Virus record (IMG/VR): IMGVR_UViG_2850808358_000008
Span: 1 to 37,329 of that record
Length of the DNA: 37,329 nucleotides
Reading direction: 5' to 3' (one strand)
DNA from: a virus
Lineage: Duplodnaviria; Heunggongvirae; Uroviricota; Caudoviricetes
The notes below the pieces were generated by a model, which was given only the letters and a program-made list of their open reading frames with translations, was not told where the DNA came from and did no database searches. The position numbers were made by a program, and so were the translations under genes. Below are positions 27,353 through 33,227 of the stretch, piece after piece; the first letter of the stretch is position 1; each line of letters opens with the position of its first letter.

Positions 27353-27448
27353 AGTAGAAACCTCAACAGTTTTATCAGGACCTACGATATATTATATAAC
27401 AACAAGCCGCCCATTACCCAATATGAGGGTATTAGCGGCAATGTAAAA

Positions 27449-27943
27449 TCAGAACAGTCCTTTAACTGAACTGGCCGCGCTGTTAAGGGATGATGTGACC
27501 TTATCTTTGAAGCCGGACAGCATATCACTGAACGATGAGGATTGCAGACGCTCCCGCAAATCCTCATCACAGCGTTCAAGGGTCAGTGAAAATTCTATCT
27601 TTTTCGCCTTACCGTAGCGATCAAACTCGGAACGGGTCGTATTCGTTTCAGTCAGTACATACATGCCGTAAATCTGCCCGACACCATCAATCAGAGGCCA
27701 GGGGCGTCCTGTATATGCCTGTGTGGTCAGCAACGAAAGCGACACTTCGCCACCTGTAATTTCAGGATAAAGCACGCCGGAAAGCACGATGCGATCATCA
27801 CCTGCGCCGATATACTGCCAGCTTGCTGAACGGTTAACGCGTTCATTTTTCACATGCCGCCAGCTTTTGTTTTGCTGTAACTGCTGATGCGGCAATGTGC
27901 GCAGCTCAAAAACAAACATGCCGTAGATCATCATCATGGCCAT
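27449..27943 (-). CDS. U: Tail protein, P2 gpU-like
   Basis: 164-aa ORF. N-terminus MMMIYGMFVFELRTLPHQQLQ...WRH resembles P2 U as recalled. Confidence 0.8.
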   Translation of the reverse strand: MAMMMIYGMFVFELRTLPHQQLQQNKSWRHVKNERVNRSASWQYIGAGDDRIVLSGVLYPEITGGEVSLSLLTTQAYTGRPWPLIDGVGQIYGMYVLTETNTTRSEFDRYGKAKKIEFSLTLERCDEDLRERLQSSSFSDMLSGFKDKVTSSLNSAASSVKGLF

Positions 27944-27949
27944 GACTCC

Positions 27950-30792
27950 TCAATCTTTATCGTAAAAACTGCCACGTCCGGCACGGTCGCGTCGTTCCAA
28001 TTCTGCCCTGACCATTTCACCGACCAGTTTCGCCAGTTCGCGGGGATTCTGTGTAACAACGTTATGCAGATGAACATGAATTTCACCGCCAAATCCGGAG
28101 GCAACAGGCTCCCGGTTACGGGAAGTTACAGGAACTGATGCCACTGGAGATCGTATAGCCTCCGCCACCGGGCGGGAGCTGGCCGCAACAACAGGGACCA
28201 GCGCCGGAGGCAGCGGAGCCGGGACCACGGGTGTGATATTAATTGCGGGGGCAGGCTTACTGACCTGCGCAATCTTCCGCTCCTGCCACTCCCCACGAAC
28301 AGCAAGTGCGCGGGGCAGGTTCTTAAAGACAATATCGCCGGGGCCAATGCGTTTTTTCGTCTCATCAACCAGCTTACCTGTGTTATCAGCAATTTTGCTG
28401 AGCCTGCGTAGCGTTCCGGTGTTGCTGTCTGTGAGCGGTTTATTGTCTTTGGGTTTATCACCTCCGGTGCCATTGCCATTTTCCACAGGCTTCGGCGGAT
28501 TGATTTTCGCCAGGTCACCCTGAAGCAAGGCAACCTTGTCCTGAAGAATGGCCGCACGCTGTGCGTCTTCAATTTTCTTTCTCGCCCTTTCCGCTTCATC
28601 CGGAAGGACACCGAGTTTTTCAAGTATCCACGCCAGCGTATCCAGTAACATTTTTGCAGGCGTCAGAACAAGCTGTAACGCACCACCAAGAACGTTACCG
28701 AATACCTCGCCAGCACTGGTGCATTTATCCAGCGTTTCCTTGCTGGACTCCATCGGTGACAGCAGCGATTTAAACCAGTTAAACACCTGGCTGATCCCGC
28801 TTCCGATTGCGTTAAAAACAGGGCCAAACCGTTCAAAGGTTTCGCGCAACGGGGCCAGTCGCTCCATAATCCCACTGAACACCCCGGCATAAAACGCCTT
28901 GATGGGTTCCCAGTATTTCCAGATGAGAACCGCCGCAGCGACAAACGCTGCAGCAATCAACCCGACCGGACTGAACAGCGCCCGATAGCGCCTCCCAATA
29001 AAGAAACGGAACCCGTCACCATTCCCCATAGTGCTGGCAGGACCCTGACAGCATTCATTGATCCGGTCAGGAGAGAAAAACCAAGACGCAGTTTTGCCAG
29101 CGGGCCAGCAAGCACACCAATAGCCAGCGACAACGAGCCAACCGTTGCAGTCATTGCCAGCAACGCACCGCCTGCTATCAGTAGCTGGCGCGTCAGTGCG
29201 GGATGGGCCTGCGCCAGCGCCGTCACCTTTGAGACCACTCGCGTGAGCCACTGCGTGACAGAACGCAGCGGACCGTCAATCAGATCTGCAATGCGGATGC
29301 GCAACCCTTCCCATGCACTGCTGAGTGATTTCAGATCGCCGTCAAGGTTGTTGGCCATAACCTTTGCCGTGCGTTCAGCCTCACCGCGCGCGCCTTCAAG
29401 TTCTTTTCTCAGTTTGGGCAGGGAGCCGTCACCTGCCGCATCAACGAGGGCCATAAATGATGTGAAAGCCTCTTCTCCGGCAATGTCCTTAAAGAACGAT
29501 ACCCGGTCAACTTCCCCGTATTTGCGGGTGGCTTTATAAAGATCGGCCAGCACATCCTCCATCGGGCGCATTTTGCCGTTCGCGTCAGAAACAGCCACAC
29601 CAAGCTCCTTCAGCGCCTCTGCTGCCGCCTTTGGCGGTGATGCCAGACGAGCCAGGCTGGCACGCATTGCCGTCCCAGCATCACTCCCTCTGATACCCAT
29701 ATTCGCCAACACGCCAGCCATCGCTGCGGCCTGCTCCAGCGATATTCCCAGCTTACCCGCTACCGGACCTGCATATTTCATGGTTTCGCCCAGTGCGCGA
29801 AGGTCAGTGTTGGTACGGGTAAACGCTGCGGTGAGTGTGTCACCGACCCGGTCCATCTGGTCAGCAGAAAGGCCGAACTGCGTCAGGATATTTGAGCCAA
29901 TATCCGCCGTCTCGCCGAGATCCATACCGCCAGCCGTTGCCATGCTCAGCACGCCGGGAAGCGCAGCCTGAATGGCCTGCGGTGTGAAGCCAGCCATTGC
30001 AAGAAATGCCTGCCCACTGGCGGCATCGCCTGCAGTGAACTGCGTTTCAGAGCCAAGTTTTAACGCCTGTTCACGCAGCGCCTTAAACTGCGGGCTGTTC
30101 TGGTCGATTCGCGTCAGTGCCTGAACGCAGGACATCTCTTTCCCGAACCCGATCGCAGGCTGCAAAAAACGCCCGGCAGCATAGCTGCCAGCCGCTGCCG
30201 CACCAATTGCCAGCGCACCACCTGTTTTCAGTTTTCCCGCGGTTTCCTGCGCGCGCGAATACCGCTCACGCGCACGTGTTACACGCGCAAGCGCCTGCCG
30301 TTCGCGTTCAAGCTGGTTGTTGTACTGTTCGGTGCGTCTGATGGCCTGCTGGATGGTGTTATCGCTGCCTGTCAGGGAAATGCCGTGGCGTTTCAGCTCT
30401 CCGCCAAGCTCCCGCATTTTCTGAATTTCCCGTGTGCGCGATTCATTCAGGCGTTCAAGCCGGGTGCTTAACTGCTGCATCAGCTTTTGTTGCTTTTCGC
30501 TGAGCACTGTACCCGTGCGTTGTAACTGATTAAGGGCGTTAAGCTGGCGTCGTGCTTTCACGATACCCGCATCCGCTTTACTGACAGCGTCGCGGGCGCG
30601 CTCAAATGAACGCGCCTGACGCTCGAGATTTTTGATCGCCCCCTGCGTTCGCTGGATGGAGTCACCAAACTGCCCCATCAGGCGGCGGGCGTTTTCGGCA
30701 GGCCGGGTCAGCCTGTCAACGGCGCTGAAAGCGACCCGGATATCAAGAGTCTTCATTGTCTGCATTCCCGCTGCGAAGTGCCGCCCGCTCAC
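27950..30792 (-). CDS. T: Tail tape measure protein, P2 gpT-like, split by an apparent 1-bp deletion in a G-run near 28988-28990
   Basis: Two overlapping minus-strand ORFs (28957-30792 and 27950-29251). Coiled-coil-rich N-terminal part and hydrophobic segments; the frame stays open across the junction in the neighbouring frame (...VSLLG / RRYRALFSPVGLIAAAF...). Confidence 0.8.
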
Positions 30793-31326: not shown

Positions 31327-31839
31327 TCAGCCAAGCCCAAGCGCGGAACGGATGCGATCGGGCACAATGTCCTTGCCGTCCTTCCGGTAAATGAAGTTCA
31401 GCAGGTCAATCTCCCACAACGGGCGATCGTTAACACTCAGCTTGTAGTAGGTGTTTTTAATGGCGTAAGTGTGTGATGTGGCTTCGCCCTGTTTGGCTTC
31501 CCCCATATCAATTTCCGTCACACGTCCGCGCATTTCGACTTCATACAGGTCGCTTTCTGCATCGGTGTAGTATTCACCCGCAAAACGCAGCAGCGTGCCG
31601 TCAATCGTGCCGCCATACTTAAGGAACAGCTCACGAACTGCGCCCCCCATGACAAAGCTCGCATCAAGCGCAGAGTCGTCCAGACCGAGATCAATACTTA
31701 CCGCCCCCATCATGCCACCACCCCGGTAGCTGTCGGTTTTGCGCGTCAGCTTAGGCAGAGTGACGGACGTCACCTTACCCACTTCGTTTTCACCATCCAC
31801 AAACAGCGTAAAAAAGCGAAGATGTTTTGGCACAGCCAT
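31327..31839 (-). CDS. FII: Tail tube protein, P2 gpFII-like
   Basis: 170-aa ORF directly downstream of the sheath gene on the minus strand. Confidence 0.85.
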   Translation of the reverse strand: MAVPKHLRFFTLFVDGENEVGKVTSVTLPKLTRKTDSYRGGGMMGAVSIDLGLDDSALDASFVMGGAVRELFLKYGGTIDGTLLRFAGEYYTDAESDLYEVEMRGRVTEIDMGEAKQGEATSHTYAIKNTYYKLSVNDRPLWEIDLLNFIYRKDGKDIVPDRIRSALGLG

Positions 31840-33022
31840 CAGGCACCTCCCAGCACCGCAAATGCGGGTTCAAAGTATTCATCAGTAAACGTCTGGTAAA
31901 GCTCCATGTCTTCCAGTGGCGGAACGGGCGTATATTTGTAGCGAATACGCACACGCCCCTGACGTAAATCCGTTGTGCTGTTATCCACCACGTCATACCA
32001 GCACTCCGCGCCAATCAGTTTCCCGGCAGTCACCAGTGAATCCAGTTTTGCCCTGATGGCACTGATAACATCCTTCACGTTCGCAGGCGTCAGTGGACTG
32101 TCGATGGTTTCAAACTGCGCTTCCGCAATTGAATCAGCCAGCACCTGTGCGGTTCGGGTATACACCTCAAAGATGTAGGCGTTCGTTTCCGGTGTGCGGT
32201 TGCCCCAGAAGCGGAACCCGTTGCGACGAATAATGGTCGTGATTTCTTTGTTGTTGAGGCTGTTGGCATCACTGTCTTCGGCCTGCAACGACCAGAACAC
32301 ATGCCTGGACATCCCCAGCACATTTTTAACCGGAACGTTGGACAGCGATTTGTGCCAGCCCTGTTCATGGTCAATGTACGCACGAAGGCCGCACGCATAG
32401 GCAGGCGCGGGGAACGTTTCGTTTTTGCCACTTTTCGGGTTGTAGGCGATGAAGTCCGGCCATAAGAGCATCACCTCACGTTCGTTGAATTTCTGGCGGT
32501 AGGTAATCGCCTCAGCCATCGTGTTACAGCCGTGACATGAGGCATACACAAACGCGCGAAGTTTACCCGCAATCACGCACAGGGATTTTGTCACCGCCTC
32601 CGTGTCCAGCTCCGGCGCGGCCAGAATACGCGGACGGTATCCGATGCTTTCATCCTGCTCTGCAACAAGCAGCGCATACATCCCGTATAGCTGCCGTCAG
32701 ATTCAGAACCACCGATAACCAGTTGATCCTGCGTTTTTCCGTCTTCTTCTTTGTGTTCAGCCACGCGAACGACGATCACCTTTGTGCTCACCTGGTCTGC
32801 GATGGCCTTAAGCGCACGATAAAGCGTCCCCGTTGTTCCGCATTTTCCCAGCACGTCATTGACGCGGGTCAGCAGTGTGGGCTTGTTCAGCGGGAACAGC
32901 TCCGCGTCCGCATCATCCGCCGTTGCCACGATACCGATAACACTGGAATCAACATCATTAATCGCTGTTACCAGGTCGGTACTTTCCGTAACACGGGCAC
33001 CATGAAAACGAGTTTCACTCAT
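31839..33022 (-). CDS. FI: Tail sheath protein, P2 gpFI-like, split by an apparent 1-bp deletion in a GGG run at 32682-32684
   Basis: N-terminal ORF (32591-33022) and C-terminal ORF (31839-32681) together reproduce P2 FI as recalled (ADDADAELFPLNKP ... QGWHK.LSNV ... FRFWGNRT ... YTPVPPLE), joining at SYTG / MYALLVAEQ. Confidence 0.85.
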
Positions 33023-33227
33023 AGCTTCAGCCCCTTGTATCCGTTAAATGATTCGGCAACAATCATCACCCACCACGCGCGTAATCTCACCCTGCGCCGT
33101 TCTCCCGCCACGGCGACAACAAAAAGCAGTAACCCCTCCGCACGCACATGCGACCATGCCGCACAGGGAGGGAACAGATGACCGACACCACCATGCAATT
33201 GCTCAGTCAGGGCACAGACCCGTGAAA

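Follow-up and report, generated by a model that had tools for sequence, protein, structure and literature searches.

The 37,329-nt window, by which we mean the whole stretch of DNA that was analysed, is by its sequence a P88-like prophage (genus Xuanwuvirus, Peduoviridae). The opposed orientation of its tail genes is the normal, long-fixed order of the P88-like branch. It is very likely that this order derives from a single inversion that was fixed in the clade. The genes on either side of one junction would be expressed from a shared activator box, with promoters and a terminator that are predicted. The main value of this result is as a correction: when P2 is used as the template, as it was in the first-pass annotation of this DNA, every P88-like prophage is flagged as “inverted”, and at least 7% of complete E. 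coli genomes carry one. The right genome for comparison is P88, not P2, and the divergent layout should count as another standard arrangement among P2-like phages.

The identities and strands of the genes involved, which the first-pass annotation had read from the sequence, were confirmed by Pfam matches. Taken with the open reading frames, these matches place U, T, E/E', FII and FI on the minus strand between 27449 and 33022. Both flanks are oriented the other way, their tail fibre assembly gene, GT9 moron, D and ogr being plus-strand genes. The genes are as follows.

25480..26079, plus strand: tail fibre assembly gene (G-like); PF02413 Caudo_TAP, E 8.9e-44
26174..27352, plus strand: GT9 glycosyltransferase moron; PF01075, E 4.2e-6; low GC, about 34%
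27449..27943, minus strand: gpU tail gene; PF06995, E 5.5e-39; 46% identity to P2 U
27950..30756, minus strand: gpT tape measure; PF10145, E 1e-58
30743-30898, minus strand: E' extension; PF06528 on the E' frame, E 2.6e-12
30907-31272, minus strand: gpE; 32% identity to P2 E
31327..31839, minus strand: gpFII tail tube; PF04985, E 7.5e-47
31839..33022, minus strand: gpFI tail sheath; PF04984, PF17482 and PF22671
about 33179..34286, plus strand: gpD; PF05954; 49% identity to P2 D
34329..34589, plus strand: ogr, late-gene activator (Ogr/Delta zinc finger); PF04606, E 5e-14; 42% identity to P2 Ogr

The G-like gene, the C-terminus of which shows 43% identity to P2 G, closes the long plus-strand late operon. 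The start of D at about 33179 was placed by comparison with its annotated homologues in P88 and in an E. coli prophage, and D so defined adjoins FI, the two genes being divergent and 156 bp apart. The earlier statement that D is separated from FI was therefore mistaken, and it is U from which D has been parted. Within gpE, a P2-type slippery heptamer, TTTTTTG, is present at 30961-30955 (minus strand). This E/E' site is common to P2 and the window, and P2 annotates a -1 frameshift site in the corresponding gene; frameshifting in the window is predicted from these sequence features.

The relationship to P2 is evident at the level of gene content. P2-type portal, terminase, scaffold, capsid, L, V, W, J, I, H, FI, FII, E, T, U and D families are all present according to Pfam, and the window proteins are 26-73% identical to those of P2 by tblastn. 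The gene families and internal order of the P2 F operon (pF-FI-FII-E-E'-T-U-D, then ogr) are the same as those of the window, and ogr comes after D in both. The P2 reference record gives the order H G (fun/Z) FI FII E E' T U D ogr on one strand, and in this respect the first-pass annotation had correctly given an order FI-FII-E-T-U-D that is co-oriented with H and G. The canonical collinear operon is not found in the window, where FI-U and D are on opposite strands (minus and plus, respectively). Compared with P2, FI-U is inverted, and D lies outside the F operon and is without the overlap with U that the D gene of P2 has. This missing collinearity is a clade-wide difference and provides no ground for dropping the prophage from Peduoviridae.

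The relationship to the P88-like phages is far closer: the window is about 96% identical to P88, against 31-61% identity to P2 for the proteins. Nucleotide identity to P88 is 96-97% over 11604-24239 and 27442-35041 and 96% over 4127-9276, while in parts of the early region and in the cargo slots it drops to 87-90% or is absent. The late genes of P88, P884B11, Chuche, PhiR44_2 and Citrobacter phage phiSM (Xuanwuvirus) share 94-97% nucleotide identity with the window. In these P88-like phages U, T, E', E, FII and FI are on one strand and D and ogr on the other, as in the window, and the FI-D spacer of 156-158 bp is also the same. P88 has been induced and causes lysis of hosts; phiSM, too, is active as a phage (PMC5285337; PMC6456863).

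The window's gene order and strands are annotated identically in the isolated phages P88 and Chuche and in one E. coli prophage. At least 380 of 5426 complete E. coli genomes are collinear with the window over the tail region, a genome being counted when at least 80% of 25400-34700 was found in one collinear place. Among IMG/VR loci, those with an FI at least 54% identical to the window type are all divergent (64/64), and those with a P2-type FI are all collinear. Of the GTDB species genomes, 23 (in 13 genera) are divergent and 51 collinear, with no exception. Overall, all 90 loci with a sheath that clusters with that of the window are divergent, across 13 genera of Enterobacterales, and the 63 with a P2-type sheath are collinear without exception. 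Neighbour-joining trees of FI, FII, U and D were each cleanly split by arrangement. Clean splits of this kind, together with 90 loci set against 63, point to one old inversion that was fixed in a clade. On this reading FI-U was inverted a single time, in a phage ancestral to an Enterobacterales clade, and has kept that orientation ever since. The P2 order is probably the ancestral one, judging from how much more widespread and diverse the collinear type is, the trees being unrooted. No explicit description of the FI-U inversion was found in the literature searched, which concerned P88, Xuanwuvirus and P2-like gene order.

The first-pass annotation had left a choice between a genuine inversion, an assembly mis-join and an unusual lineage arrangement. 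The last of these is borne out by P88, Chuche and the 90 related loci. Close relatives stably share the orientation, an observation that the first-pass annotation itself had named as counting against its view of an anomaly. The proposal of a genuine inversion stands as an old event at the base of the clade and fails as a recent one. The GT9 moron occupies an accessory slot of variable content, bounded by G and by the 3' end of U, and this slot corresponds in position to the Z/fun locus of P2. The same moron is annotated as a GT9 family protein in a prophage of E. coli OkiPb01714, and it is present in only 2-3 of the approximately 90 loci with the window's tail arrangement. Where the window has the GT9 moron between the tail fibre genes and U, P88 has an invertase cassette with alternative fibre genes, and Chuche a different glycosyltransferase. 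Among loci that share the inversion, the interval from I to U varies from 0.8 to 5.2 kb.

If the assembler had placed the 5.6-kb block backwards, through a mis-join or mis-orientation, the arrangement would be an artefact, and the several single-base errors or deletions in repeats of the window do suggest that sequence quality may be imperfect. However, independent isolated phages have both junctions identical to the base, as do hundreds of complete genomes, and the alignment with P88 is unbroken from 27442 to 35041, through the FI-D junction. An assembly error can for practical purposes be set aside. A recent inversion in this prophage alone, perhaps brought about by the arrival of the GT9 moron or connected with it, is very improbable. 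It is true that the moron abuts one end of the block and that homology to P88 ends 7 nt beyond the U stop codon, but the arrangement is identical in P88, in Chuche and in about 87 other loci, all of them without this moron. The varying length of the I-to-U interval among relatives also argues against this reading, and the rarity of the moron among inverted loci gives no support to the link to moron acquisition that had been suggested. The junctions, moreover, are without inverted repeats: a search for short repeats that pair 27353-27448 with 33023-33227, as proposed in the first-pass annotation, revealed none. An 18-nt, 83% match was noted between the box region described below and 25776-25793, inside the tail fibre assembly gene, and was judged to be due to chance.

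The DNA invertase of P88 adjoins U, and one might imagine a site-specific invertible segment of the Gin/Cin/Hin type that flips the tail module. An invertase beside alternative tail fibre genes is the usual host-range switch, and the P88 invertase flanks just such genes, namely alternative tail fibre and tail fibre assembly genes. In the window there is no invertase from G to U, and only the tail fibre assembly gene and the GT9 moron lie between H and U. With no inverted repeats to bracket the block and the other orientation in 0 of 90 clade loci, there is hardly any chance that such a switch operates on the tail genes. Finally, an ancestor may have gained a foreign FI-U cassette that was inserted in the opposite orientation. 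In favour of such a replacement are the mosaic nature of phage genomes and the age of the event, which leaves no readable breakpoints; even so, we hold it to be unlikely. FI-U is as similar to P2 as are the flanking D, V, W and J genes, the protein identities within the block (31-48%) being no different from those of D (49%), V (46%) and J (54%). Further, the trees of FI, FII, U and D share one bipartition, and the distance from the pF box to the ATG matches that of P2. This similarity, the agreement of the trees and the pF geometry are as expected for genes that were inherited together.

A single old inversion of the FI-U block is the best explanation. With FI-U inverted and D out of the F operon, D-ogr must have its own promoter, and this draws attention to the FI-D spacer. 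The relevant elements are listed here.

14916..14940, minus strand: second box copy, in the P-O divergent spacer; exact match to TTTTGTTGT-N12-AGAA
27406..27439, minus strand: candidate terminator hairpin of the FI-U operon, just past the U stop; predicted
33062..33067, minus strand: -10-like hexamer GATGAT of the inferred pF; GATKAT conserved in 17 non-redundant relatives
33100..33124, minus strand: Ogr-type box TTTTGTTGT-N12-AGAA at the centre of the FI-D spacer; core TGT-N12-AGA at 33101-33118
33152..33157, plus strand: -10-like hexamer GACCAT of the inferred D-ogr promoter; GAYCMT conserved, with A at position 2 and T at position 6

The box was revealed by phylogenetic footprinting. In the E. 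coli members its 3' half-site is AGA rather than ACA, one mismatch to TGT-N12-ACA, and the exact form of that motif is absent from the FI-D spacer and in the window as a whole is less frequent than expected by chance. Of 79 distinct relatives, 78 retain the box core, while the spacer varies. The full pattern has just two exact copies in the window, one in the P-O spacer and one in the FI-D spacer, both of which are divergent late intergenic regions (the start of O at 15007 was taken from the P88 annotation). In relatives the box is 76.5-88.5 nt from the FI ATG. In the comparison with P2 a distance of 82.5-88.5 nt was used, and this geometry matches that of P2, where 82.5 nt separate the centre of the pF activator site from the FI ATG. 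In collinear relatives the box pattern upstream of FI was matched in only 21 of 62, and the comparison consequently rests on the annotated site of P2. Hexamers of the form xAxxxT flank the box on both sides in relatives, mirrored at +43.5 to +48.5 from its centre. A simple sigma-70 scan yielded promoter-like sites at a background level and nothing notable in the FI-D spacer. A weak sigma-70 signal is expected at activator-dependent promoters, and this result is not taken as support. At the other end of the block, folding of the minus-strand RNA yields a GCCGC...GCGGC stem followed by the U-rich UUGUUGUUAU (z = -2.1). A generic terminator scan gave a single terminator-like match close to the U junction, and this match overlaps the last part of the U gene.

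These features suggest how the inverted block might be expressed. The inversion would have carried pF and its Ogr box along with FI, setting both back to back with D, and the 156-bp spacer would now act like the pP/pO region of P2, with one box and two divergent promoters. Ogr at the box would activate FI-U leftward and D-ogr rightward, and the FI-U transcript would stop at the hairpin past U, facing the end of the O-to-G operon across the accessory slot. P2 annotates a single activator site, of the TGT-N12-ACA type and midway in a short spacer, for the divergent pP and pO, and the window's P-O box is its counterpart; P2 has this layout at P/O only, whereas the window is predicted to have a second such unit at FI/D. 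In the window S and V overlap, and a separate pV would not fit between them. By this layout D and ogr, outside the F operon, are apparently served by the Ogr box of FI, a compact bidirectional design that is likewise predicted. We lean, by a small measure, toward the further proposal that the pF site became a second bidirectional late control region, with ogr wired to the same box in positive feedback and the whole late programme of the clade consisting of two boxes and four promoters. In the papers searched, no description was found of a late wiring with two boxes and four promoters.

The window differs from the P88-like phages by frameshifts of the repeat-slippage type that are private to it, in A, H, T, FI and D. 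By comparison with P88, Chuche and the E. coli prophage, a 1-base deletion in a C run at 28980 divides T, an intact 2808-nt gene in relatives, into two open reading frames. FI is similarly divided by a 1-base deletion (CCCC to CCC) at 32681; the CCC allele had no matches in IMG/VR and the CCCC allele at least 120. In D, a 1-base deletion at 33218 places the first 13 codons out of frame, and from the ATG at 33229 onward the reading frame is undisturbed. Two further single-base deletions, at 33089 and 33132, make the distance from the box to each -10 hexamer 1 nt shorter in the window, and if these deletions are real they could impair both predicted promoters. The window also contains an IS3-family insertion, unlike its P88-like relatives.

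The ORF map and Pfam scans bore out the gene layout and strands proposed in the first-pass annotation, which had flagged the tail block from U to FI as inverted relative to the P2 order:

H, plus strand, tail fibre
25480-26079, plus strand, tail fibre assembly gene
26174-27352, plus strand, GT9 glycosyltransferase, low GC
27406-27439, minus strand, candidate terminator, a hairpin and U-rich tail just 3' of the U stop codon
27449-27943, minus strand, U
27950-30756, minus strand, T, tape measure
30743-31272, minus strand, E' and E
31327-31839, minus strand, FII, tube
31839-33022, minus strand, FI, sheath
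about 33179-34286, plus strand, D
34329-34589, plus strand, ogr

The remaining late genes follow the P2 order, with Q and P leftward and O N M L X ... R S V W J I H G rightward. D had been described as separated from FI; in fact the two adjoin divergently across a 156 bp gap, and the neighbour that D has lost is U. Because the P2 reference record places FI FII E E' T U D ogr all on the strand of H and G, the segment inverted with respect to P2 is exactly that from FI, with its predicted pF promoter, to U.

This arrangement is not peculiar to the window. Of the 5426 complete E. coli genomes, at least 380 contain the segment 25400-34700 collinearly, over 80% or more of its length. In a further survey of loci that encode sheath relatives, taken from IMG/VR and, for GTDB, from a single genome of each species, we recorded on which strand I, FI, FII, T, U, D and ogr lie. 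In all 90 loci with a window-type sheath (54-100% identity), FI-U runs on the strand opposite to that of ogr and D, and all 63 with a P2-type sheath, about 50% identical to that of the window, are collinear; among these 90 and 63 surveyed loci there were no exceptions to the match between sheath type and arrangement. The divergent type occurs in Salmonella, Citrobacter, Edwardsiella, Enterobacter, Kosakonia, Symbiopectobacterium, Pantoea, Mixta, Erwinia, Trabulsiella, Izhakiella, Klebsiella and Pectobacterium; the collinear type, found also in Burkholderia, is the more diverse of the two. In neighbour-joining trees of FI, D, FII and U, one branch in each cleanly parts the two arrangements. The simplest reading is a single inversion, which would have taken place in the ancestor of one clade of P2-like phages of Enterobacterales and been inherited since.

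Judged by its proteins the window is not P2, to which matches across the whole genome reach only 26-73% identity. Its DNA is 94-97% identical to that of Escherichia phage P88 (genus Xuanwuvirus, Peduoviridae), as well as to that of phages Chuche, PhiR44_2 and P884B11 and Citrobacter phage phiSM. The annotations of P88 and Chuche show the same genes on the same strands, as does that of the E. coli OkiPb01714 prophage, in which the same GT9 gene is also present. P88 has been induced and lyses a number of different E. coli strains (PMC5285337; PMC6456863); phiSM, too, is active, as a temperate phage (PMC6456863). The inverted layout is therefore functional. The inverted tail block is real but ordinary, being standard in a named phage genus and in a wider clade. 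It is already visible in existing annotations, and explicit discussion of it was not found in the papers searched.

A reversed block might have been produced by mis-assembly, the mis-join considered in the first-pass annotation, but this is excluded by junctions that are common to relatives and by a P88 alignment that is unbroken from 27442 to 35041. Also excluded is a site-specific invertible segment that flips the tail block: the window is without an invertase, a single orientation is seen throughout, and the search for inverted repeats at both junctions, suggested with the original observation, found none at the block boundaries. That observation had further raised a possible link between the inversion and acquisition of the GT9 moron, the gene that separates U from the tail fibre assembly gene. 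Such a link is not supported, since GT9 is present in only 2-3 of roughly 90 loci, the same position is occupied in P88 by an invertase and alternative fibre genes and in Chuche by another glycosyltransferase, and the I-to-U interval among the loci spans 0.8 to 5.2 kb. An old cassette replacement, in which FI-U was acquired in reverse orientation, is disfavoured by the concordance of the gene trees and by a divergence from P2 that is even across block and flanks; the FI-U proteins are 31-48% identical to those of P2 and the flanking D, V and J 49%, 46% and 54%, so that the block is neither more nor less diverged.

In P2, the F operon ends with D, which overlaps U; with the block inverted, as a single ancestral inversion would have left it, D would need its own promoter. 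Upstream of FI, an alignment of 18 relatives (sheath identity 54-100%) contains a sharply conserved central element, TTTTGTTGTC ... AGA/ACA, which is a predicted P2-type Ogr/Delta box (TGT-N12-ACA), its 3' half being AGA in the E. coli members. The box core is kept in 78 of 79 distinct sequences, with a spacer that varies, and its distance from the FI start codon is 76.5-88.5 nt. The annotated pF activator site of P2 is centred 82.5 nt from the P2 FI start codon, and from this similar distance the pF promoter appears to have travelled with FI. Exactly two copies of the extended box motif TTTTGTTGT-N12-AGAA occur in the window, in the FI-D spacer (33100-33124) and the P-O spacer (14916-14940), oriented alike relative to their flanking operons; in the P2 record one activator site is common to the divergent pP and pO. 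When 17 non-redundant relatives are aligned without gaps and anchored on the box, two features are conserved outside it. One is a GTGA on the FI side (+20 to +23); the other is a pair of -10-like hexamers, GATKAT facing FI and GAYCMT facing D, each spanning +43.5 to +48.5 on its own side and each having A as its second base and T as its sixth.

Based on the conserved box, the hexamers on both sides and the pP/pO precedent, we propose that one predicted Ogr box would serve two divergent late promoters, leftward for FI-U and rightward for D-ogr, as for P/O. S and V overlap, which leaves no space for a separate pV, and the late genes would then run from two boxes and four promoters. The shared-box design, which we infer here, may be undescribed and is of modest specialist interest. 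In the P-O region (14853-15006), the ORF of the scaffold gene O is listed from 14974; both the P88 annotation and the place of the activator box point to the second ATG, at 15007, as the probable true start. With that start, the P-O spacer would match the FI-D spacer in geometry. The Ogr box region (33103-33120) also pairs with positions 25776-25793 within the tail fibre assembly gene (GTTGTCGCCGGGAGGGGA), at 83% complementarity over 18 nt, which is probably due to chance.

Compared with P88 and all other relatives, the window carries nine single-base deletions, all but one of them in G or C runs:

6171 and 7659, replication gene A, frameshifted twice into two ORFs
11755 and 11855
28980, T, frameshift
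32681, FI, frameshift
33089 and 33132, FI-D spacer, one between the box and each -10-like hexamer
33218, D, frameshift

A 2-base loss at 25393-25400, where a (CA)n repeat close to the H 3' end is one CA unit short, frameshifts the final ~30 codons of that gene. The CCCC allele of FI has at least 120 matches in IMG/VR and the CCC allele of the window none there, so that the latter is private. These losses either arose as sequencing errors at repeats or are slippage mutations private to the window; the latter would make the prophage defective, for example one that came from a mismatch-repair-deficient host.

The GT9 moron (26174-27352; heptosyltransferase family, about 34% GC) is likely a lysogenic-conversion gene acting on LPS. 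Few surveyed relatives have it, yet the top E. coli prophage matches do; in P88 its slot is filled by an invertase cassette, and the positional counterpart of the slot in P2 is Z/fun. Downstream of replication gene A, in P88 as in the window, is a ParM-type actin-like segregation protein (8003-8962; StbA_N and ParM_N domains), which is unusual in an integrating P2-like phage. In the A-Q region, a known cargo hotspot, an IS3-family transposase pair (9572-10812; orfA 9572-9874, and orfB 9910-10812, which has rve and HTH_21 domains) has inserted between the portal gene and the ParM-like partition genes, where P88 has other small genes instead. Toward the right end, a DNA methylase fragment (35580-36104) precedes an ORF (36334-37329) that exits the window and has weak, sub-threshold similarity to Mu GemA; this end may lie outside the P88-like prophage or represent different cargo.
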